Below are positions 45-63,803 of a stretch of DNA of 64,000 nt, one piece after another. How positions within the stretch are numbered: the stretch's first letter is position 1; each line of letters opens with the position of its first letter. The notes below the pieces were generated by a model that did no database searches, had not been told where the DNA came from, and saw nothing but the letters and a program-made list of their open reading frames with translations. Origin of the DNA: an uncultured Candidatus Saccharibacteria bacterium (GTDB lineage: Bacteria > Patescibacteriota > Minisyncoccia > UBA6257 > XYB1-36-10); contig CAYIDJ010000001.1 in NCBI GenBank assembly GCA_964362215.1, positions 13,151 to 77,150 of the forward strand. The letters are read 5' to 3'. Position numbers and translations under genes: made by a program.

Positions 45-215
45 TTAATAATACCTGGCCTACAGCTCTAATGTTACTGAATATTCACATAAAAACCACC
101 TCCAGTCAACCCAGTTAGAAAACACCTGACCACACTCCTATCTCCTAACGTTCTTTATTCTTTGTCTTCTAACAGGGTCAATACCCTTCTCTATTGCCAT
201 TCCCGTTCCTCTCCT

Positions 216-244
216 GTCATTCCTGCGGAGGCAGGAATCCAGTC
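216..244. repeat. Family-3 short hairpin repeat (GTCATTCC-stem-GNRA-like loop-stem-GGAATCCAGTY), copy 1 of 5
   Basis: gtcattcctgcggaggcaggaatccagtc. The same architecture recurs at 16596, 24616, 42824 and 63775, with compensatory changes in the stem. Confidence 0.7.
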
Positions 245-353
245 CTCTCCGTCATTCTGAATCCGCCTTTAGTGGATGAAGAATCTCGCCACCCCCTTGC
301 CCCCATTCCCTATATAACTTAAACTTCAAATAGACCCTTTCAGGAGGTGTGCT

Positions 354-563
354 ATGAAGAAAATCCGCCTATCAGAATTTATCGGAGCCGAAATCAAAGT
401 TGCCCTTGGGCCTGTCAACCGCTAGTACACCGGTGAAGAAGTAAATCACGACCCCACCCCCGACGAAGCTATGGAACACTTCGTAACGTCCGGCGGCGCC
501 GAGAGATTTACCACCGAGCACCGGCAAGAATTCACCGAAGAAATTTCCGACGTCACTCAATGA
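354..563 (+). other. Small ORF with a strong Shine-Dalgarno site, interrupted by an in-frame TAG at 423-425 (24 codons, then 45 codons to TGA)
   Basis: caggaggtgtgctATG: AGGAGG lies 7 nt upstream of ATG 354. The frame continues past TAG to TGA at 561-563, followed by a hairpin plus T-run terminator. Confidence 0.3.
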
Positions 564-573
564 CGTCGGCATA

Positions 574-16492: not shown

Positions 16493-16595
16493 CTTCCCCT
16501 TTGTCACTTGCCCGAACAACTCCGTTGGGCGGATTCCCGCGGCCTTTAGTCCTCGCGTCAGCGGGGAGGGAATCCATCTCCTCTTCTTCCCTTCT

Positions 16596-16624
16596 GTCAT
16601 CCCAGCGAAAGCTGGGATCCAGTC
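16596..16624. repeat. Family-3 hairpin repeat, copy 2
   Basis: gtcatcccagcgaaagctgggatccagtc. Confidence 0.7.
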
Positions 16625-24584: not shown

Positions 24585-24615
24585 AAATTGTTTCTTAGTT
24601 CGTCATTTCACTTCT

Positions 24616-24644
24616 GTCATTCCAGCGGAAGCTGGAATCCAGTT
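24616..24644. repeat. Family-3 hairpin repeat, copy 3 (rpmI-rplT intergenic)
   Basis: gtcattccagcggaagctggaatccagtt. Confidence 0.7.
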
Positions 24645-32591: not shown

Positions 32592-35500
32592 ATGGCTACC
32601 ACCGACAACCGCCCTCTTCCTGAACGAGAAAAAGAAATCCTCGCCTTCTGGGAGGATAAAAAAATTTTTACCAAATCCCTCCAACAAACTGCCAAGGGTA
32701 AACCTTTTGTTTTTTATGAAGGCCCCCCTTCCGCCAACGGCCGCCCCGGCCTCCACCACGTTCTTGCTCGCGCTTTCAAAGACATCATCTGCCGCTATCA
32801 GACCATGTGCGGCCGCTATGTCGCCCGCCGCGCCGGCTGGGACACCCACGGCCTCCCCGTGGAAGTCCAGGTGGAAAAAGAGTTGGGACTGAAAAGTAAG
32901 CGCGATATTGAAAATATCGTCCCCGGCGACCGCCGCGCCAGCATCATCACCTTCAACCAGAAATGCCAAGAATCCGTCTGGCGCTACCGCGACCTCTGGG
33001 AAAAGTTAACTTCTCGTATGGGCTATTGGTTAGATATGGAAAATCCTTATGTTACTTATGAACCGGAATATATCGAATCTCTCTGGTGGATTATATCCCA
33101 AGTTAACCGCCAAGGCCTTCTTTACCAAGGCCATAAAATTCTTCATTGGTGTCCCCGTTGCGGCACCGGCCTCTCCTCTCACGAAATCGCTCAGGGTTAC
33201 CAAACCGTCACCGACACCTCTGTTTTCGTAAAATTCAAACTCGCCCCTCATCAAAAAATCGGTAAAATAACCGTCCCCGCCAATACCTATATTCTATCCT
33301 GGACCACCACCCCTTGGACCCTCCCCGGCAACGTCGCTTTAGCGGTCAATAAAAATATAAAATACGTTCTCGTTAAAATTGGCTCCGAAAACTTTATCGC
33401 TTCGGCGGACTTTCTCTTCCAACTCAAAGAAAAAACAATTTCTGTATCCAATAAACAAATCAAAGGCCAGAATCTGATCGGCCTTAAATACGAGCCGCTC
33501 TTTAACATTCCCAAACTTAAATCCCCCGCCTCCCATCAAATTTATCACGCCGATTTTGTTACTACCTCCGAAGGCGCCGGCATCGTCCACACCGCCGTTA
33601 TGTATGGCGAAGACGACTACGAACTGGGCCAAAAATATAATCTTCCCGCCATCCACACCGTGGATGACGCCGGCCGCTTTCTTAAATTCGTCTCCGCCGG
33701 CCTCGCCGGCCTTGCCGTCAAAGATTCCGCCACCACCAAGAAAATCATCTCTTATCTGGAAAATAAAAACTTCCTCCTTAAAACCGCTCCCTACGAACAC
33801 GAATACCCTTTCTGCTGGCGCTGCGACACGCCCGTCATCTACTACGCCCGCTCTTCCTGGTTTATCAAGATGTCCGCCCTCAAAGACAAACTCATTAAAA
33901 ATAACTCGTCCATCAGCTGGGTTCCCTCTCATCTTAAAAATGGTCGCTTCGGTGAATGGTTAAGTAACGTCAAGGACTGGGCTGTTTCCCGCGAACGCTA
34001 CTGGGCCACTCCTTTACCCATCTGGCTCTGCTCCTCTTGTAATCACCTAGAAGTTATCGGCAGTTTGTCCGAATTAGATAAACTCACTGTCTCCTCCAAT
34101 AACCGCTTTTTCATTATGCGCCACGGTCAAGCTCTCTCTAACGTCAAAAACTTCTTGAGCTCTTACCCGGAAAAACGCCTCAACCCCCTCACTCCCGCCG
34201 GCGCTAAAGAAATGCTGTCCGCCGCCGCCCGCCTTAAATCAAAAAAGATTGATCTTATTGTTTCCTCCGACCTCCCTCGCGCCCACGCTACTGCCAAACT
34301 CATCGCCTCTGCTCTCGGCATTAAAAAAGTCGCTATTGACAAGCGCCTGCGCGAGCGCGACTTCGGCCAAGATAACGGCCTGCCGATTAAAAACGCTGAC
34401 TCCTCGCAACACGAACCGCTATCCAGTATCCGCGCCCGCGTAATAAAAGCGCTTTTTGACACCGACCGCCAGTATCAAAATAAAAACATTCTTTTTATCA
34501 GTCACGGTTCTCCTCTGCTTACTCTTCGCCTCGCCGCCGAAAACACTGACAATACTCTCCCCGTCAATGAACCTCTTTTGCCTACCGGCGGCTGGCAGGA
34601 GCTTAAACTGAAACGTCTTCCCCGAAACGACGATGGCGCCGTAGACCTTCACCGCCCTTATATTGATGAAGTTAAGCTCTCCTGCCCCTCCTGCCGCCAT
34701 TCCCTGACTCGCGTACCCGATCTCCTTGATGTTTGGTTTGACTCCGGCGCCATGCCTTTTGCCGCCCCCCGCTTCCCTTTCGCCGTCAAAAAACTTGCCG
34801 CCACCGACTATCCCGCCGACTATATCTCCGAAGCCGTTGACCAGACCCGCGGCTGGTTCTATACCCTTCTTGCCGTCTCTACTCTCTTAGGTTTCAAAGC
34901 TCCTTACCGCCACGTCATCTCCTTGGGACACCTCAACGATAAACACGGCCAGAAAATGTCCAAATCTCGCGGCAATATAGTTGACGCGGAAGAAATGATG
35001 GAACGCTACGGCGCCGATATTGTCCGCTGGCACTTTTACACCATTAACCAACCCGGCGACACCAAAAACTTTGACGAATCCGACCTCAAGAAAGTTACTA
35101 ATCGGGTTTTTAATATTCTTCAAAACTCTCTTGTCTTCTACCAAACATACCGCGCCTCGCCGAAACTTCATGCACAACCTAAGTATAGTCAAAGGACAAA
35201 AAACATTCTGGATCTCTGGCTCGCCGCCCGCCTCACTGCCACCAAACTGGAGATAACTTCTCGATTAGACAAATACGACGTTTATCACGCCGCCTTAAGT
35301 ATTGAAAAATTAATTGACGATCTTTCTCGCTGGTATATCCGCCGCTCCCGTTCCCGCTTTCAACAACCCACTTCTACCTCCGACCACGTTGCCGCCTCTG
35401 TCACTCTCCGCTCCGCCCTTATGGAAATATCCGCCCTTCTCGCTCCCTTCACGCCCTTCTTCGCTGAGTGGCTCTATAAAGAACTGGGTGGCTCTAAAGA

Positions 35501-36071
35501 ATCAATTCATCTAGAGTCGTGGCCAAAAACCTCCCCCAAAATAGACCCCGCTCTTCTTTCCCAAATGGAAACAGCTCGCCAACTCTCAAGTTTAGGACTA
35601 TCCGAACGCTCATCCTTAAATATCAAAGTCCGTCAGCCCCTCGCCGAAATGAAAGTGTCGCTAGACACCCTAAGCGCAGTCAAAGGGTCTCATCTGCCAA
35701 AAGAAATAGTCGCCCTCGTCGCCGATGAGGTTAATGTTAAAAAAATATCTCTCGGTAATCGCCTCGCCAAAGACAAAGAAGTTGAACTTGACGCCGTCAT
35801 CACTCCCGCTCTTCGCGAGGAAGGCAACTTGCGCGAACTAATCCGCGCCGTTCAGTCCCTCCGCGCCGCCGCCGGCTTAAAACCCGGAGAACCAGTTTCT
35901 CTTTTCTTCCAATCCTCCCCTGTCGCTTCCGCCTTTATCATTAAACACACCGCCGCCCTCACTAAGGCCTGCTCTCTTAAAACCGTTTCCGCCAACTCCG
36001 TCTCTTCTCCTAAATCAAGCCGTGCGCTCTCCTTAGACGACCTCGGCCCTATCTCTCTCGCGATAAAATAA
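32592..36071 (+). CDS. ileS: Isoleucyl-tRNA synthetase carrying an inserted histidine-phosphatase (PGAM-like) domain
   Basis: HIGH-region PSANGRPGLHHV, GWDTHGLPVE, CP1 editing domain, KMSKS (QKMSKSRGN). ~180 extra residues (aa ~500-682) contain RHGQ...SHGSPL histidine-phosphatase motifs between the conserved IGSLSEL and DLHRPY segments. Confidence 0.85.
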   Translation: MATTDNRPLPEREKEILAFWEDKKIFTKSLQQTAKGKPFVFYEGPPSANGRPGLHHVLARAFKDIICRYQTMCGRYVARRAGWDTHGLPVEVQVEKELGLKSKRDIENIVPGDRRASIITFNQKCQESVWRYRDLWEKLTSRMGYWLDMENPYVTYEPEYIESLWWIISQVNRQGLLYQGHKILHWCPRCGTGLSSHEIAQGYQTVTDTSVFVKFKLAPHQKIGKITVPANTYILSWTTTPWTLPGNVALAVNKNIKYVLVKIGSENFIASADFLFQLKEKTISVSNKQIKGQNLIGLKYEPLFNIPKLKSPASHQIYHADFVTTSEGAGIVHTAVMYGEDDYELGQKYNLPAIHTVDDAGRFLKFVSAGLAGLAVKDSATTKKIISYLENKNFLLKTAPYEHEYPFCWRCDTPVIYYARSSWFIKMSALKDKLIKNNSSISWVPSHLKNGRFGEWLSNVKDWAVSRERYWATPLPIWLCSSCNHLEVIGSLSELDKLTVSSNNRFFIMRHGQALSNVKNFLSSYPEKRLNPLTPAGAKEMLSAAARLKSKKIDLIVSSDLPRAHATAKLIASALGIKKVAIDKRLRERDFGQDNGLPIKNADSSQHEPLSSIRARVIKALFDTDRQYQNKNILFISHGSPLLTLRLAAENTDNTLPVNEPLLPTGGWQELKLKRLPRNDDGAVDLHRPYIDEVKLSCPSCRHSLTRVPDLLDVWFDSGAMPFAAPRFPFAVKKLAATDYPADYISEAVDQTRGWFYTLLAVSTLLGFKAPYRHVISLGHLNDKHGQKMSKSRGNIVDAEEMMERYGADIVRWHFYTINQPGDTKNFDESDLKKVTNRVFNILQNSLVFYQTYRASPKLHAQPKYSQRTKNILDLWLAARLTATKLEITSRLDKYDVYHAALSIEKLIDDLSRWYIRRSRSRFQQPTSTSDHVAASVTLRSALMEISALLAPFTPFFAEWLYKELGGSKESIHLESWPKTSPKIDPALLSQMETARQLSSLGLSERSSLNIKVRQPLAEMKVSLDTLSAVKGSHLPKEIVALVADEVNVKKISLGNRLAKDKEVELDAVITPALREEGNLRELIRAVQSLRAAAGLKPGEPVSLFFQSSPVASAFIIKHTAALTKACSLKTVSANSVSSPKSSRALSLDDLGPISLAIK

Positions 36072-42781: not shown

Positions 42782-42823
42782 TATTCACAATTTGCCCATC
42801 TATATGTCATTCTCGCTCTCCAT

Positions 42824-42852
42824 GTCATTCCCGCGAAGGCGGGAATCCAGTC
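42824..42852. repeat. Family-3 hairpin repeat, copy 4
   Basis: gtcattcccgcgaaggcgggaatccagtc. Confidence 0.7.
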
Positions 42853-45469: not shown

Positions 45470-47176
45470 TCAAAATTCTATCTCTCCTGTCACTCTCTCC
45501 ACTTCCTCCAAACTCGTCACGCCCGCCAGCACCTTTAACATCCCGTCCTCTTGCATCGTCACCATTCCCTGTTTCCTCGCCATCTCCCTTATATCTAATA
45601 CCGCGTGCTTCTCGGCGATTATTCTTTCCACCTCATCCGTTATCCGGAACAACTCAAAAACCCCCACTCTTCCCTTATATCCCGTCCCGCCACACCGCTC
45701 GCACTCTTTCCTTTGTCTCGGCGTCTCGTAAATCACGCTCGGTACCTTCACACCGTCTTCCTTCCTTACCCTCTCCGGCAGTTTTTCTATAAACCTCTCC
45801 CATCTTTCCTTAAGCGACGGAGTTACCGTCTGTTTCTCTCGGCACTTCTCGCATAACTTCCGCACCAGCCGCTGGGCAATCACCAAATCCAGCGCCGCGG
45901 AAATCAGCGACGCCTCCGCTTTTAAATCCACTAGCCGCGGAATCGCTCCCGCCGCGTCATTGGTGTGCAGCGTGGAAAATACCAAATGTCCCGTCAGCGA
46001 CGCGTTCACCGCTATCCCCGCTGTCTCCTGGTCTCTTATCTCCCCCACCAGTATCACGTCCGGGTCTTGCCGCATTATTGACTTCAAGCCGCTGGCGAAC
46101 GTGTATCCCGCCTCCGCGTCCACCTGTGTCTGTTCAATCCCCTCCAGGTGGTATTCCACCGGGTCTTCAATCGTGATAATCTTCACCTCCGCCGTGGCCA
46201 CCTTTTTCAAAAACGCATAGAGAGTCGTCGTCTTTCCGCTTCCCGTCGGCCCGGTCACCAGCATCATCCCATTGGGTTTTTTAAGCTCCGCCTCCATCGT
46301 TTTTTGGTCGGAGAGCCGGAATCCCAACTGCGTCACGTTAAGCGATATCGTCTCTGGGTCAAGTAACCTCATCACAATTACCTCCCCGTACTCCGCCGGC
46401 GCCATCGCCACCCTCACCTCCACATTGTCCTGCCCTATCGCAATGGTAAACCGGCCGTCCTGCGTCTCGTCGGTGATGTTTAACTTGAGTCCCGCCAACA
46501 GCTTTATCCGCGACGCCACCTGCCTGTAAAAATCCTTCGGCAAAGGCTTGCTCTCCCCTCCCAATACTTGGTGCAACACTCCGTCCAGACGCATCCTGAC
46601 CTCAACTCTCGTCTTCGCCGGCTCAAAGTGTATATCGGACGCTCCCAGCGCCAGCGCTCCTCCGAAAACCGCCTCCAAAAACTCCGTTACCGGCACCTTA
46701 TTGAAATTAAACTCTTCCAACCGCCCCTTAAGTTTCCCCATAGTCGTCATCTCTTTCTTTAAAGTCTGCAGTTTCTCCACGTTAAGCTCCACTCGCCCGA
46801 TTATCTCCCCCGCCGCCCCCGTCACATATTTATAATAACTCCAGGCATGCCTCAATCCGGCTATTGATGTCACAAAAATATCCGGCTTGTATCCCAGTTT
46901 CTCCAACCGAGCCAGCTCTTCCGCCACTCCCGCCGCCCCCAAATCAAAAACCGCCACAATCAGGTCTTTGTTGACTAAATTTACGGCGGCCAATTTTAAC
47001 TCTTTTGCCCTCTCTTCGGGCACTAATCGCAACGCCTCTATTTCCACCGGCGTTGTCACAATATTCAAATACGGTCTCCTTTGTTTCGCCGCTCGCCGCT
47101 CCGCGTCGCGCTCCTCCGCCCGTTGATTAAAACGAATCAGTTTTTCCTGAAGCGCTGTGGAGTTATTTTGTAACAT
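45470..47176 (-). CDS. Type IV pilus / type II secretion assembly ATPase (PilB/GspE family)
   Basis: Walker A LVTGPTGSGKTTTLYA, Asp/His boxes, tetracysteine C-terminus (CEKCREK...CERCGGTG). Confidence 0.85.
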   Translation of the reverse strand: MLQNNSTALQEKLIRFNQRAEERDAERRAAKQRRPYLNIVTTPVEIEALRLVPEERAKELKLAAVNLVNKDLIVAVFDLGAAGVAEELARLEKLGYKPDIFVTSIAGLRHAWSYYKYVTGAAGEIIGRVELNVEKLQTLKKEMTTMGKLKGRLEEFNFNKVPVTEFLEAVFGGALALGASDIHFEPAKTRVEVRMRLDGVLHQVLGGESKPLPKDFYRQVASRIKLLAGLKLNITDETQDGRFTIAIGQDNVEVRVAMAPAEYGEVIVMRLLDPETISLNVTQLGFRLSDQKTMEAELKKPNGMMLVTGPTGSGKTTTLYAFLKKVATAEVKIITIEDPVEYHLEGIEQTQVDAEAGYTFASGLKSIMRQDPDVILVGEIRDQETAGIAVNASLTGHLVFSTLHTNDAAGAIPRLVDLKAEASLISAALDLVIAQRLVRKLCEKCREKQTVTPSLKERWERFIEKLPERVRKEDGVKVPSVIYETPRQRKECERCGGTGYKGRVGVFELFRITDEVERIIAEKHAVLDIREMARKQGMVTMQEDGMLKVLAGVTSLEEVERVTGEIEF

Positions 47177-53432: not shown

Positions 53433-54536
53433 TCACGACTTCACCGGCATTAGAATATAAATATAAGAATCATCACTTGAATCCTTTATTGCCGTCGGTT
53501 TGTCTTTAAAATTAACTTTCAATTTTATCTCTCCCCCTTTTACCGACCTAATACCGGATAAAAGATAGTGCCAGTTAAAAACAACTTTTCCCCCTCCTCC
53601 CGCCACCTTTGCCGGCACTAAATATTTATTTTCCCCAACCCCCTGACTCATTGATGTAATCTCTATAAAATTCTTATTCACGGCCAGAGTCACATCCGAT
53701 ATTTTACTGGATAAAACACTGACTACTTTAAGCGCCGTCACCATCTCCTCTTTTAAAGCTACCACCTCTGTATCGTAAGCGCTTGGAATTATTTGTTTAT
53801 AATCAGGAAAACTACCGTCAATTAAATGAGATACTATCATCACCCCCTCTCCCGAAAACATAATTTGATTTGAATCAATATAAATCTTAACCTCTTCTCC
53901 TTCCGGTAAAACCCTAATTAATTCGTTTACTGTTTTAAGCGGCGCAATTAAAGACCAACCCTCATCGCCCTTCAGAGAAAATTCGTCTTTATAAATAATT
54001 CTTTCCGCTAAACGAAAACTGTCTGTTCCCGCTATTCTTAATTCATTATTTTCTGCCGATATAAAAATTCCGTTTATCTCTGGCCTTAATTCGGAAAACG
54101 TCGTCGCTGACATCACTTGCGCTATTATTTCTTTTAATCTCGCCGCTGGTAAAATTAAAACTGGATCTTTATTGGTAATATTTGGAATAATCGGAAAATC
54201 ATCAACGGCTAAAGTTTGAATTTGTGCCTCATAATTATCCGTTTGAATGTTAAATTTATCTTTTTCTGTGCTTAAATTAACCACCTCACTCGTTAGATTT
54301 GAAATTATTGAGCTAAAAACACCAGCTGGTACTGTTACCGCTCCCGACTCAATAATCTTTCCCGGACATATCTGTGTCACTCCTATCTCTAAATTTGTCG
54401 CCGATAGTTTTATCTCTCCATTATCAACTTTAATTAATAAATTCTTAAGTATTGGTAAATTAGAAGATTCATTGCAAATTTTTGCCACAATTTCCACCAC
54501 TCTTTTTAAATTATTTTTTACAAATACTAATTTCAT
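53433..54536 (-). CDS. dnaN: DNA polymerase III beta sliding clamp
   Basis: MKLVFVKNNLKRVVEIVAKI..., 367 aa with three-domain clamp organisation, immediately downstream of dnaA. Confidence 0.85.
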   Translation of the reverse strand: MKLVFVKNNLKRVVEIVAKICNESSNLPILKNLLIKVDNGEIKLSATNLEIGVTQICPGKIIESGAVTVPAGVFSSIISNLTSEVVNLSTEKDKFNIQTDNYEAQIQTLAVDDFPIIPNITNKDPVLILPAARLKEIIAQVMSATTFSELRPEINGIFISAENNELRIAGTDSFRLAERIIYKDEFSLKGDEGWSLIAPLKTVNELIRVLPEGEEVKIYIDSNQIMFSGEGVMIVSHLIDGSFPDYKQIIPSAYDTEVVALKEEMVTALKVVSVLSSKISDVTLAVNKNFIEITSMSQGVGENKYLVPAKVAGGGGKVVFNWHYLLSGIRSVKGGEIKLKVNFKDKPTAIKDSSDDSYIYILMPVKS

Positions 54537-54667
54537 TCTTAAAATCTAACTCTCTTTATATTATATATATTTATTATTATAGTAATACTTTATCTTTTCC
54601 TGTTAAAAACAATAAATTATCCACTATTTAACGTATTTTAATATATAATAAGATGTTAATAATATGT
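54537..54667. other. Candidate oriC segment (AT-rich dnaA-dnaN intergenic region with a DnaA-box TTATCCACT)
   Basis: 131 bp, ~85% AT, with TTATCCACT at 54617-54625 (8/9 match to TTATCCACA). Flanked by dnaA and dnaN. Confidence 0.4.
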
Positions 54668-56029
54668 TTAACTCTTGTATATTAATTCCTTTATTAAATT
54701 AACTTTTTGGTTTAAATTACTATTTTTTAATATTTCCTTGTTTATTTTTTCACAGGCATGGATAGCGGTTGTGTGGTCTCTCTTCCCCACCTTATCCCCA
54801 ATAAAAGGATAAGACATACTTAAAACATTACGGAGTAAATACATTATTATCTGCCTTGGTTCCACTATCTCTTTTTTTCTTGATTTTCCTACTAAATCAC
54901 TTATTGGGACCTCATAAAAATCAGCTACTGCCTTAATAATCTTATTTGGATTAACATTCTTATTACTTTGATTGTTTTTACTTATTATATCTTCTACCAC
55001 TTCCTCCGTAATTTGTATATTTTTACTTTCTTTTACGAATATTATTTTATTTAATATCCCCTCTATTTCTCTTATGTTTTTGGTTAATTTATTAGCTATT
55101 AAACTCACCACCGGCTCGTCCAGGGAATGGTGGCATTCCTGCAATTTTGTCTTTATTATCGCCATTCTCATCTCATAGTCGGGATAACTGATATCAACCG
55201 TCATTCCCCCCTCAAACCGGCTTCTTAAGCGCTCCTGTAACGTTGGTAATTCACTGGGTGGACGATCGGAAGAAATTATAATCTGCTTGTTAATTGAGTG
55301 TAAAGCGTTAAAAGTGTGAAAAAATTCTTCCTCCGTCTTTTCTTTACCTCCAATAAACTGTATATCGTCTATAATTAAAGTATCCACGTTCCGGTAGCGG
55401 CTCTTTATATCCTCCATCCGCTTATTTTTTATAGCCCAAACCACGTCGCTAACGAACCTTTCTGAAGTCACATACTTGACGGAAACCACATCTTTATACA
55501 TAGCCATAATCTCATTGCCGATTGACTGTATTAAATGGGTTTTTCCCAACCCCACCCCTCCGTAAATAAACAGCGGATTGTACTTTACTCCCACATTTTT
55601 TACTACCGCCTGCGCGGCGGCAAAAGCCAGCTCATTAGCCGATCCCACCACAAAGTTTTTGAATGTATATTTAGGATTAAGATTGGTGTTCGGGTTTATT
55701 TTAAACTCCGGAAACATCATTTGCGCGGAAGGCATATAAGCCGTTTTAGCTTTATGCGACAATGTTAACGCCTTAAATATCCCCCCCGACACCACAAACT
55801 CCACTTTTCTGGCGGAAGAATCCAAATTGCGCAGTACGCTTAAAATATTTTTATTATATTTATTTTCCACCCACTCCTTTGAAAAATTATTTGGCAGTGC
55901 TATCACAAAAGTGCCGGCATCGTCCTTATCTACTAATTTACTGTTCTTAAGCCAGGTATGAAAATTAGCGTGAGTCAGCTGAACTTCCATTTCCCCTAAT
56001 ACCGATTCCCAAATTTTTTCCAACTCCAT
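54668..56029 (-). CDS. dnaA: Chromosomal replication initiator protein DnaA
   Basis: AAA+ Walker A GGVGLGKTHL, sensor motifs, and the C-terminal DNA-binding domain (DHTTAIHACEKI). Confidence 0.9.
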   Translation of the reverse strand: MELEKIWESVLGEMEVQLTHANFHTWLKNSKLVDKDDAGTFVIALPNNFSKEWVENKYNKNILSVLRNLDSSARKVEFVVSGGIFKALTLSHKAKTAYMPSAQMMFPEFKINPNTNLNPKYTFKNFVVGSANELAFAAAQAVVKNVGVKYNPLFIYGGVGLGKTHLIQSIGNEIMAMYKDVVSVKYVTSERFVSDVVWAIKNKRMEDIKSRYRNVDTLIIDDIQFIGGKEKTEEEFFHTFNALHSINKQIIISSDRPPSELPTLQERLRSRFEGGMTVDISYPDYEMRMAIIKTKLQECHHSLDEPVVSLIANKLTKNIREIEGILNKIIFVKESKNIQITEEVVEDIISKNNQSNKNVNPNKIIKAVADFYEVPISDLVGKSRKKEIVEPRQIIMYLLRNVLSMSYPFIGDKVGKRDHTTAIHACEKINKEILKNSNLNQKVNLIKELIYKS

Positions 56030-56228
56030 ATTAATTTAGAAACATTATACTCTCTTTTTTTAAAAAACACTTACCCCGTCAAATTTAGTCAGTTTATTTT
56101 ACCCTGTCCCACTCCTCTTTCCAACCTAAAAATCTGTAGGAACGCCGTTGACGCGCCGTGTCAATGACATTTCTACCTTCCTCCCACTTTTGATTTTTTT
56201 ATTTAATTCTGCTACATTTATAGCGCTT

Positions 56229-56363
56229 ATGTCCCAAACTTATCAACCTAAAAAGAAAAAACGCCGCCGCACCCACGGTTTTCTGAAACGCCGCCGCACC
56301 CCTACCGGCCGCAATGTTCTCTCCCGCCGCCGCCGCAAAGGCCGTCGCCGCCTCGCCGTTTAA
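56229..56363 (+). CDS. rpmH: 50S ribosomal protein L34
   Basis: [44 protein letters not shown]. Start trimmed from the longer ORF. Confidence 0.9.
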
Positions 56364-56417
56364 TTTAATCATTACTTTTTAGTACAAATTTGCCCGCCAG
56401 CCAATATTATTTATCTT

Positions 56418-56738
56418 ATGCTGGCCAAGAAATATAAACTGTCCTCTTCTTCCTTTCCCCGTCCCTCTCACCTCGGCCGCTCCGGACGTTATCTGTCCGT
56501 AAACCTCTCCCCTACCTCCCTCCCTTTCAGCCGTTTTGGAATTATTGTCAGCTTAAAGTATGATAAGCGTGCTGTCGCTCGCCACCGCCTCAAAAGAGAA
56601 ATCTTTGAACTTATCAGAAAAACCGGCGCTTTCCGTGTTCCCGGCCATGACATTGTTGTTGTTGTCAAAAAAGGAGTAACCTCCGTCGACCTGATTCCAA
56701 TTACTAAAGAGGCCTCCTCTCTACTCTCCAATCTCTAA
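56418..56738 (+). CDS. rnpA: Ribonuclease P protein component
   Basis: Follows rpmH. Basic, with an RNR-like motif (KRAVARHRLKR). 106 aa. Confidence 0.75.
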   Translation: MLAKKYKLSSSSFPRPSHLGRSGRYLSVNLSPTSLPFSRFGIIVSLKYDKRAVARHRLKREIFELIRKTGAFRVPGHDIVVVVKKGVTSVDLIPITKEASSLLSNL

Positions 56739-56741
56739 CTT

Positions 56742-57494
56742 ATGACTTTTTTATTTAACGAAATTCTCTATCGTCCCATCCTCAACGCTTTAGTGTTGGT
56801 TTATAACCATCTTTCCTTTGGTAGTTGGGGACTGGCGGTTATTATCATTACCGTCATCATCCGGATTATTCTCTTTCCTTTCTTCCATAAAGCCAGCCGC
56901 AGCCAGGCGATTATGCAGAAAATTCAACCCCAAATAAAAGACATTACTGATCGCCATCAAAACAACAAAGAAAAGCAAATGAGAGAGATAATGGCTCTCT
57001 ATCAAAAACATCGCGTCAACCCTTTTTCCAGCTTTGGCCTTCTCTTTATTCAACTGCCCGTGCTGATTGCTCTTTATCTTGTTTTTTTACGCGGTCTAAC
57101 TCCCGACAACCTTTCTCTTCTCTACTCCTTCGTCTCCGCGCCTCTTCATGTTGACTTCACCTTTCTATGGTTGATAAATCTAAAAGAAAGTAGTATTATA
57201 ATTGTCGTTGTCGCCGCCGCTCTCCAGTACCTTCAGGCCCGCCTTAGTCTGCCGCGCCGGCAACCCGCGGCCGCCGTTTCTTCCGCCGAACGCCTAGGGC
57301 GTCAAATGTCTTTTATCGGCCCGGTTGTTACTCTCCTCGTTTTAATCAATCTCCCCTCGGTTATCGGTATTTACTGGATAACAACTTCCGCTTTCTCTAT
57401 CTTCCAGCAGCTTATTATCAATCGCTCTCTATCCGACTCTAACTACCAAGAACATGGACCAGACGGAAACAAAAACAATCAAACCAATCCTTGA
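56742..57494 (+). CDS. yidC: Membrane protein insertase YidC (short Oxa1-like form)
   Basis: Five-transmembrane core with conserved RILLFPF...MQKIQPQIKDI...MALYQKHRVNPFSS segments. Confidence 0.85.
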   Translation: MTFLFNEILYRPILNALVLVYNHLSFGSWGLAVIIITVIIRIILFPFFHKASRSQAIMQKIQPQIKDITDRHQNNKEKQMREIMALYQKHRVNPFSSFGLLFIQLPVLIALYLVFLRGLTPDNLSLLYSFVSAPLHVDFTFLWLINLKESSIIIVVVAAALQYLQARLSLPRRQPAAAVSSAERLGRQMSFIGPVVTLLVLINLPSVIGIYWITTSAFSIFQQLIINRSLSDSNYQEHGPDGNKNNQTNP

Positions 57495-57903
57495 ACAAAT
57501 TATCGCCTTAATGAACATTGGCGACTTTAGAGTTGAATGGAACGAAGAATTGCGTCGCCTCAGCGTCTTCATTGATAATGAATATTTCATTAAAGACCAA
57601 CTGCCGCCGCTGGTTGAAAACCTCAATCATTTAGGCCAGTTGATTGCCAAAAAAATCGGCGTGAGTTTAGGTTGTGTGGACGTCAACAACTATCGTTTGG
57701 AACGCGAACGCATCATTACCGACTTAGCCCGCGCCGCCGCTCGCAAAGCCATCATGACTAAAAACGAAGTATCTCTCCCTATTATGAACTCCTACGAACG
57801 CCGCCTCATTCATATGGAGCTCGCCATGCATCCTGACATTCGCACCGAAAGCGATGGCGAAGGGCGCTCCCGCCACGTCAAAATCAAACCCATCCTTGAA
57901 TAA
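57454..57903 (+). CDS. Jag/KhpB RNA-binding protein (KH plus R3H)
   Basis: R3H motif SYERRLIHMEL. Conserved position after yidC. Confidence 0.75.
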   Translation: MDQTETKTIKPILEQIIALMNIGDFRVEWNEELRRLSVFIDNEYFIKDQLPPLVENLNHLGQLIAKKIGVSLGCVDVNNYRLERERIITDLARAAARKAIMTKNEVSLPIMNSYERRLIHMELAMHPDIRTESDGEGRSRHVKIKPILE

Positions 57904-63774: not shown

Positions 63775-63803
63775 GTCATTCCAGCGAAAGCTGGAATCCA
63801 GCT
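63775..63803. repeat. Family-3 hairpin repeat, copy 5 (just upstream of nusA)
   Basis: gtcattccagcgaaagctggaatccagct. Confidence 0.7.

Follow-up and report, generated by a model that had tools for sequence, protein, structure and literature searches.

The closest described relative of the hairpin repeat analysed here is the Neisseria Transformation Sequence (NTS), CGTCATTCCCGCGMAVGCGGGAATCYRG, which contains the repeat dRS3 as its core and belongs to a broader class of sequences termed Ssn-related motifs (SRM; Chenal et al. 2025, PMC11893778). The NTS is the target of SsnA, a 94-aa single-domain GIY-YIG protein of the family cd10448, which binds the NTS hairpin solely as single-stranded DNA (ssDNA) and in one orientation, and which makes its cut upstream of the motif, a few nucleotides away, while RNA, double-stranded DNA (dsDNA) and the complementary strand are not accepted as substrates (PMC11893778). 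The C directly 3' of the palindrome is the key base for binding, and the three bases (GTC) directly 5' of the palindrome are key for cleavage (PMC11893778). In N. meningitidis, transforming DNA is integrated less when it contains the NTS, an effect of this system (PMC11893778). Strand-specific binding and cleavage of ssDNA have been shown only for the enzymes of Neisseria and Wolbachia, and according to the authors the function of Ssn outside Neisseria is not known (PMC11893778).

Two other groups of repeats invite comparison. The dRS3 and Neisserial intergenic mosaic elements (ATTCCC-N8-GGGAAT) share the core palindrome and its spacing with the repeat described below, but dRS3 is defined without oriented flanks, and it is the flanks, GTC on the 5' side and C-CAG on the 3' side, that distinguish the NTS (PMC11893778). 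The REP/BIME repeats and their RAYT enzymes resemble the NTS system in that short intergenic hairpin repeats are recognized as ssDNA by a small nuclease whose gene they flank. However, this enzyme is of the HUH/Y1 and not of the GIY-YIG type, the GTAG guide tetranucleotide is absent in NTS copies, and transposition by Ssn is only putative.

In the window, by which we mean the whole 64-kb stretch of DNA that was analysed, the pattern GTCATYCC-N10-GGRATCCAG occurs exactly five times, and all five copies lie on the + strand (Table 1). A scan with the wider pattern GTCATYCC-N(8-22)-GGRATCC returned no match in 100 dinucleotide-preserving shuffles compared with five in the window, which confirms the copies named in the original prediction; the stems and loops listed there, including the covariation of the stem, were found as described in all five. 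The invariant columns of the five-copy alignment are TGTCAT, CC, GCG, GC, GG and ATCCAG, and outside the edges of the motif there is no further similarity. Also the proposed conservation of the flanks holds for GTCAT and CCAG, which are invariant in 5/5 copies, and CCAG is followed by T in 4/5, while copy 63775 has CCAGC. The variable stem positions vary pairwise within the window, with T-A, A-T, C-G and Y-R changes. When scored with a position-weight matrix made from 101 copies of other genomes, the five copies reached 38-50 bits and the next best site of the window -9.6 bits. This gap of approximately 50 bits implies that the window contains exactly five full copies, without decayed full-length copies.

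Table 1. Positions of the NTS/SRM copies, half-sites and a related palindrome in the window
Feature	Position	Strand	Remarks
NTS/SRM copy GTCATTCCTGCGGAGGCAGGAATCCAGTC	216..244	+	inner stem pair T-A, loop GGAG; intergenic
NTS/SRM copy GTCATCCCAGCGAAAGCTGGGATCCAGTC	16596..16624	+	compensated C-G in outer stem, loop GAAA
NTS/SRM copy GTCATTCCAGCGGAAGCTGGAATCCAGTT	24616..24644	+	100-nt rpmI-rplT spacer, 31 nt before rplT ATG
NTS/SRM copy GTCATTCCCGCGAAGGCGGGAATCCAGTC	42824..42852	+	42 nt before tsaE ATG (- strand)
NTS/SRM copy GTCATTCCAGCGAAAGCTGGAATCCAGCT	63775..63803	+	16 nt before nusA ATG (- strand)
5' half-site GTCATT	24602..24607	+	8 nt upstream of copy 24616
5' half-site GTCATTC	42806..42812	+	11 nt upstream of copy 42824
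Partial half-site CATTCCC	198..204	+	upstream of copy 216
Half-site GTCATTC	251-257	+	downstream of copy 216
dRS3-like palindrome GGATTCCCGCGG...GGGAATCCAT	16531..16577	.	19 nt upstream of copy 16596; read from sequence

The likeness to the NTS is close. Copy 42824 is identical to GTCATTCCCGCGMAVGCGGGAATCYRG and matches the NTS consensus at 27/28 positions, only the first base being different, and the other four copies differ from GTCATTCCCGCGMAVGCGGGAATCYRG at one compensated stem pair or one loop base only. The degenerate SRM pattern HGTCWY..RNCYNB is matched by 3/5 copies (0.29 expected), and in each of the other two a single loop base deviates. Furthermore, the GTC 5' of the palindrome and the C 3' of the palindrome are invariant in 5/5 copies. 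The same 27-nt sequence, the 8-bp palindrome, the 4-nt loop and the oriented flanks with the invariant GTC and C are shared with the NTS/SRM class, as are the multi-copy and intergenic occurrence (5 copies in 64 kb here) and the position beside ssn genes, which the motif flanks in metagenomes and in CPR genomes. There are differences as well. The repeat is found here in a groundwater CPR bacterium of the Parcubacteria type instead of Neisseria, Wolbachia or Sphingomonas, the density of 5 copies per 64 kb is modest, and the window contains no ssn gene. At position -1, all five window copies have T, whereas 107 C and 42 T were counted elsewhere; A-T or T-A takes the place of C-G as the inner stem pair in most window copies; and the M position of the loop, A or C in the NTS consensus, is G in two window copies. 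The strict dRS3 pattern ATTCCC-N8-GGGAAT is found in copy 42824 only, and the looser pattern ATYCC-N10-GGRAT in 5/5 copies, since in the other four the sixth base of the arm is changed (ATTCCA, ATTCCT, ATCCCA) with the NTS flanks kept. Judged from these sequence features, it is very probable that the five hairpins are copies of the NTS/SRM repeat.

For each copy, folding as ssDNA gives a hairpin with a stem of 8 bp and a loop of 4 nt; the energies range from -7.8 to -10 kcal/mol, and the z-scores from -3.7 to -5.9. The sequence GCGNNAGC, which is known as an extraordinarily stable DNA mini-hairpin (PMC13037366), is present at the hairpin tip of 3/5 copies on the + strand and absent from the complementary strand. 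The mini-hairpin motif GCGNNAGC / GCGNAGC described by Hirao and co-workers (PMC13037366) is fitted on the + strand by the tips GCGAAAGC (two copies) and GCGGAAGC (one copy), while the two remaining copies (GCGGAGGC, GCGAAGGC) deviate from it; it is defined by its structure and is no genetic element. The original prediction had regarded the loops as GNRA-like. This cannot be upheld at the level of RNA: strictly GNRA loops exist on the + strand in 3/5 copies, and rplT, nusA and tsaE are encoded on the - strand, so that it is the complementary sequence that appears in their mRNAs, with the loops UUCC, UUUC and CUUC.

None of the five copies lies within a credible gene of the 64-kb window. Copy 216 precedes, by approximately 170 nt, a gene on the - strand which has its start near 44 and is cut off by the window edge. 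Adjoining this copy there is a 66-aa ORF, 372-572 (-), without any family match, which is maybe not a real gene because it overlaps two terminator-like hairpins at 547-597. Copy 16596 is situated between the stop of a + strand gene for a substrate-binding protein (16492) and a + strand tRNA gene (16727), and it is the only one in sense orientation to its neighbours. The copies are antisense to local transcription in 4/5 cases, among them copy 24616, which is antisense to the infC-rpmI-rplT operon on the - strand. Copy 42824 is found downstream of a gene with a lamin-tail domain (LTD), on its other side tsaE and then polA follow. Copy 63775 lies within the 5' UTR of nusA, whose promoter at 63921-63892 matches TTGACA-18-TATAAT at 12/12 positions; among the promoter scans around the copies, this one alone was informative. 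The intergenic sites given in the original prediction, i.e. the rpmI-rplT spacer and the regions 5' of nusA and 5' of tsaE, are correct, and so is its statement that the hairpin is not a terminator: around each copy and on both strands, no terminator-like site overlaps the hairpin and no T-run follows it. An Rfam scan of the whole window returned a tmRNA and six tRNAs only, with no match at any copy. Apart from the repeats, an isoleucyl-tRNA synthetase-like protein of 1159 aa, encoded at 32592-36071 (+), was found to carry a His_Phos_1 domain at residues 507-656, between the parts of its catalytic domain.

An exact look-up of the TsaE protein encoded in the window gave hits on Hainich aquifer contigs only, all of 9.4 kb or less, and among the named L20 homologues the best come from Paceibacterota or Parcubacteria, in keeping with a CPR bacterium of the Parcubacteria/Paceibacteria type. 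Three relatives, with L20 proteins 81-85% and TsaE proteins 74-76% identical, were compared. Following the motif into related genomes had been suggested together with the original prediction, and the outcome speaks against its conservation: the motif is absent from the rpmI-rplT spacers of all three relatives, and upstream of tsaE it is present in one (contig L126) and absent in another (L127). The rpmI-rplT spacer is 100 nt long and contains the motif here, while it has just 22 nt in L134 and approximately 73 nt with an unrelated small hairpin in L131-L133. Upstream of tsaE, L126 has two tandem copies, oriented as in the window, of which the second is degenerate; L127 has a different hairpin repeat there. 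The contigs L002 and L126 start exactly at the motif, as expected for an assembly break at a repeat. In the relative to which L127 and L133 belong (relative B, sample ERZ27293400), AGGTTTACGGAAGTAAACTTTG occurs twice upstream of tsaE (L127, 81-102 and 169-190), and a similar hairpin, GATTTACTTCGTAAATT, is found in the rpmI-rplT spacer (L133, about 2595-2612). Hairpin repeats may have hot spots upstream of tsaE and between rpmI and rplT, or the presence of a hairpin may bring some benefit at these sites.

Traces of further copies are visible beside the full ones. GTCATT(C) half-sites adjoin 3/5 copies, with a chance expectation of approximately 0.03 per copy, while elsewhere upstream GTCATT half-sites accompany 9 of 156 copies, about two-fold the approximately 4 expected. 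The half-site at 42806-42812, which reads GAATGAC on the tsaE strand, is tsaE-proximal to the full copy, as is the degenerate second copy in L126. The half-sites are probably remnants of decayed tandem copies. An origin as target-site duplications was considered and set aside, because the degenerate tandem copy in L126 makes a decayed tandem the simpler reading. The dRS3-like palindrome near copy 16596 has a long interior and lacks the GTCAT flank; it may represent a rearranged pair of NTS 3' halves. Since the motif is absent at orthologous sites in the relatives, we regard the copies as insertions and not as conserved regulators. Read in this comparison of sequences, the copies show gain, tandem duplication and decay, which does not fit with a conserved operon signal.

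Outside this lineage, the repeat is widespread. In a scan of one genome per bacterial species, the exact 27-nt pattern was found in at least 120 genome stretches from many phyla among the matches listed, and the hosts among these include Dehalococcoidia, Alpha-, Beta-, Gamma- and Deltaproteobacteria (Neisseria included), Planctomycetes, Nitrospirota, Bacteroidetes, Parcubacteria and Saccharibacteria. In 51 distinct copies elsewhere, all four Watson-Crick pairs are represented at the innermost variable position of the stem (CG 21, GC 15, TA 7, AT 3), and the loops are mostly GAAA, GCAG or GAAG. Convergent motif pairs are common in other genomes. A strand bias relative to transcription, also raised with the original prediction, is not seen in the 156 copies elsewhere, of which 24 are sense and 17 antisense to flanking ORFs as counted with a crude ORF caller that overcalls 'intragenic' in high-GC loci; the window itself has 4/5 antisense and 1/5 sense. 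The same 156 copies are also unbiased in relation to local GC skew (84 versus 72).

The connection to ssn genes rests on several observations. Among the matches listed, a GIY-YIG gene adjoins the motif in only one of 120 loci, that of Methylotenera (L038), where the gene (Pfam GIY-YIG, E = 4e-13) lies between two inverted copies approximately 300 nt apart. Metagenome contigs were scanned for the A/T stem variant of the window, arranged as motif, 280-310 nt and inverted motif, and among the 61 loci obtained approximately 40 enclose an intact GIY-YIG ORF of 93-105 aa, while the remaining ones are mostly frameshifted remnants or motif arrays. Across the motif-flanked GIY-YIG ORFs, Y6, Y17 and E64 are invariant, and mutation of the equivalent residues abolishes cleavage by SsnA (PMC11893778). 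At several loci (L164, L181, L187, L137/L144, L168/L174), tandem arrays of NTS-like hairpins replace ssn between the anchoring copies, and such arrays can be read through as repetitive pseudo-ORFs, e.g. ...IPASAGMT.... A profile search also returned Ssn homologues from organisms named as Parcubacteria and Gribaldobacteria. In the Gribaldobacteria (L197-L199), ssn is preceded by GTCATTCCTGCGAAAGCAGGAATCCAG, at 7 nt from its start, and followed after its stop by one direct and one inverted copy, while in the Parcubacteria genome GCA_016186535.1 (L196) a variant motif is found at ssn. These loci with motif and ssn indicate that the module is present in CPR bacteria. The region 10001-17135 of L196 holds two GIY-YIG genes, a Y1 transposase gene (IS200/IS605 type) and two 23S_rRNA_IVP genes amid large genes for Laminin_G_3 surface proteins, and the variant motifs GTCATTCCGGGC...GGAATCCAC flank the first GIY-YIG gene.

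Within the 64-kb window, no ssn/GIY-YIG gene or remnant was found by phmmer, jackhmmer, Pfam/NCBIfam or an Ssn HMM. The phmmer queries were YhbQ-like sequences, jackhmmer was seeded with the Methylotenera Ssn of L038, and approximately 50 window ORFs, small ones included, were scanned against Pfam and NCBIfam, the latter having no Ssn-specific model. The HMM, built from 34 motif-flanked Ssn proteins, gave a best E-value of 3.9 against the six frames of the window. Two Hainich contigs with ssn (L142, L179) were considered as parts of the genome of the window organism and rejected, because they differ in GC content and show no skew. It appears reasonably probable that a putative cognate Ssn acts on the copies in this organism.

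We consider it likely that the five hairpins represent an NTS/SRM DNA repeat that is a target of Ssn, has spread with the ssn module and has incidental gene neighbours. Such a repeat would act at the DNA level, where the single-stranded GTCAT...CCAG strand would fold into the 8-bp hairpin. A single-domain GIY-YIG endonuclease of the Ssn family, approximately 95 aa in size, would bind this hairpin via the C just 3' of the palindrome and, given the GTC 5' of the palindrome that cutting needs, would cleave a few nucleotides upstream, while dsDNA, RNA and the complementary strand would escape cleavage. A module of the form NTS-ssn-inverted-NTS, similar to a small mobile element, would carry the repeat along or spread it, and the copies would accumulate in intergenic spacers, where they are presumably tolerated. 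In the lineage studied here, this would have led to insertions beside rplT, tsaE, nusA, a tRNA gene and one further gene, and the proximity to translation and transcription genes would be incidental. The genome is predicted to encode an Ssn of its own, and the copies would be cut in vivo. Control of transformation is the role in Neisseria and for the window copies putative at most.

Other explanations have to be weighed against this reading. The position of three copies 16-42 nt upstream of start codons, in a 5' UTR or intercistronic spacer, makes one think of a cis-element at the RNA level, i.e. a stabiliser of mRNA 5' ends, a mark for RNase processing or a device to tune the translation of rplT, tsaE or nusA. 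Owing to its palindromic stem, the motif has a complement that folds just as well, rplT, tsaE and nusA have no evident Shine-Dalgarno sequence, and RNase Y as well as RNase J are encoded in the window. Moreover, the different small hairpin that relative B has at the same two sites could mean that a hairpin is wanted there. However, the asymmetric flanks are read in opposite senses, four antisense and one sense, the motif is missing from the orthologous rpmI-rplT spacers, one of which is only 22 nt long, the 27-mer occurs across unrelated phyla in both orientations (24 sense versus 17 antisense), Rfam gives no match, and SsnA is inactive on RNA (PMC11893778). An RNA element is unlikely on this balance, although individual copies may have a secondary use at the RNA level. 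The original prediction had proposed a motif recognized by a protein or by RNA, and only its first half stands. The asymmetric flanks point to a protein, and the documented recogniser of the NTS is a nuclease specific for ssDNA and inactive on RNA (PMC11893778), whereas a role as RNA or operon signal lacks support given the many unrelated phyla, the lack of orientation bias, the antisense position of 4/5 copies and the absence in relatives.

Another enzyme of mobile DNA could be the one that uses the repeat, either a RAYT (Y1) protein acting on REP/BIME-type elements or, as in Neisseria, a Piv/IS110-type recombinase with dRS3 as the site of a filamentous prophage. All copies include the dRS3 core ATTCC(C)-N8/10-(G)GGAAT, dRS3 has been reported as a target of phage recombinase (PMC11893778), a Y1_Tnp gene lies 2.4 kb from ssn in the Parcubacteria locus L196, and half-site vestiges together with tandem copies suggest repeated insertion. 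Against this stand the conserved oriented flanks (GTC 5', C-CAG 3'), which separate the NTS from plain dRS3, the lack of any transposase, integrase or prophage gene among the scanned window ORFs, and the content of the inverted-pair loci, approximately 40 of 61 of which enclose a GIY-YIG gene and not one for a Y1 or DEDD recombinase. The hallmarks of REP/RAYT systems, a 5' GT[AG]G and a Y1 gene, are likewise missing, with no GTAG at the stem and no Y1_Tnp among the scanned window ORFs. We regard such an enzyme as quite improbable. A similarity due to chance or base composition, or a set of generic intrinsic terminators, would find nothing more in its favour than the presence of a GC-containing hairpin, and it is practically discounted by the absence of matches in shuffles as compared to five in the window, the gap of approximately 50 bits, the lack of a T-run on either strand and the empty terminator scan.

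All five NTS/SRM copies are situated on the C-rich strand of a window with a GC skew of approximately -0.3 throughout, in which + strand genes are pyrimidine-rich and - strand genes purine-rich. The window includes an origin-type cluster at 53433-57903, with dnaN and dnaA (-) followed by rpmH, rnpA, yidC and jag (+), and the skew is about -0.15 to -0.4 in every 1-kb bin on both sides of the dnaA cluster, without change of sign. Either the origin is at another place, or something unusual underlies the asymmetry of the strands; the close relatives (L126, L127, L131-L134) have the extreme skew in common. The C-rich strand is the transcription template for most neighbouring genes, and it is the cleavable strand in all copies seen in this lineage, i.e. 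the five of the window and the two tandem ones of L126. From this arrangement one could speculate that the orientation of the NTS is selected and, if this applied genome-wide, that the cleavable strand is kept off the strand which is exposed as ssDNA in replication or transcription. However, the same-strand arrangement of 5/5 copies is not significant (two-sided p = 0.06), and with this value from five copies and no bias in the 156 copies elsewhere such a selection is treated as speculative and rather doubtful. If it were true, Ssn would act on the cell's own chromosomal ssDNA, beyond incoming transforming DNA, and the system would have a link to the uptake of DNA by CPR bacteria, organisms that rely on scavenged DNA. 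The window also encodes a PilB-like type II/IV secretion ATPase at 45470-47176 (-), which could belong to a type IV pilus or a DNA-uptake apparatus and would be relevant if transformation of this organism is modulated by the Ssn/NTS system.

The element thus belongs to a family of DNA repeats that was described in 2025 and is neither an operon-specific signal nor a new regulatory RNA, which guards against annotating the hairpin at rplT, nusA and tsaE as a riboswitch or leader of a ribosomal operon. The Ssn/NTS motif is extended to a Parcubacteria-type CPR lineage, almost unchanged from Neisseria, and the natural variants found here, i.e. the A-T/T-A inner pair, the G at the second loop position and the T at -1, could inform about the specificity of Ssn. 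Furthermore, copies come and go between close relatives and tandems decay to GTCATT half-sites, a turnover that bears on whether NTS-ssn-NTS is a mobile element.
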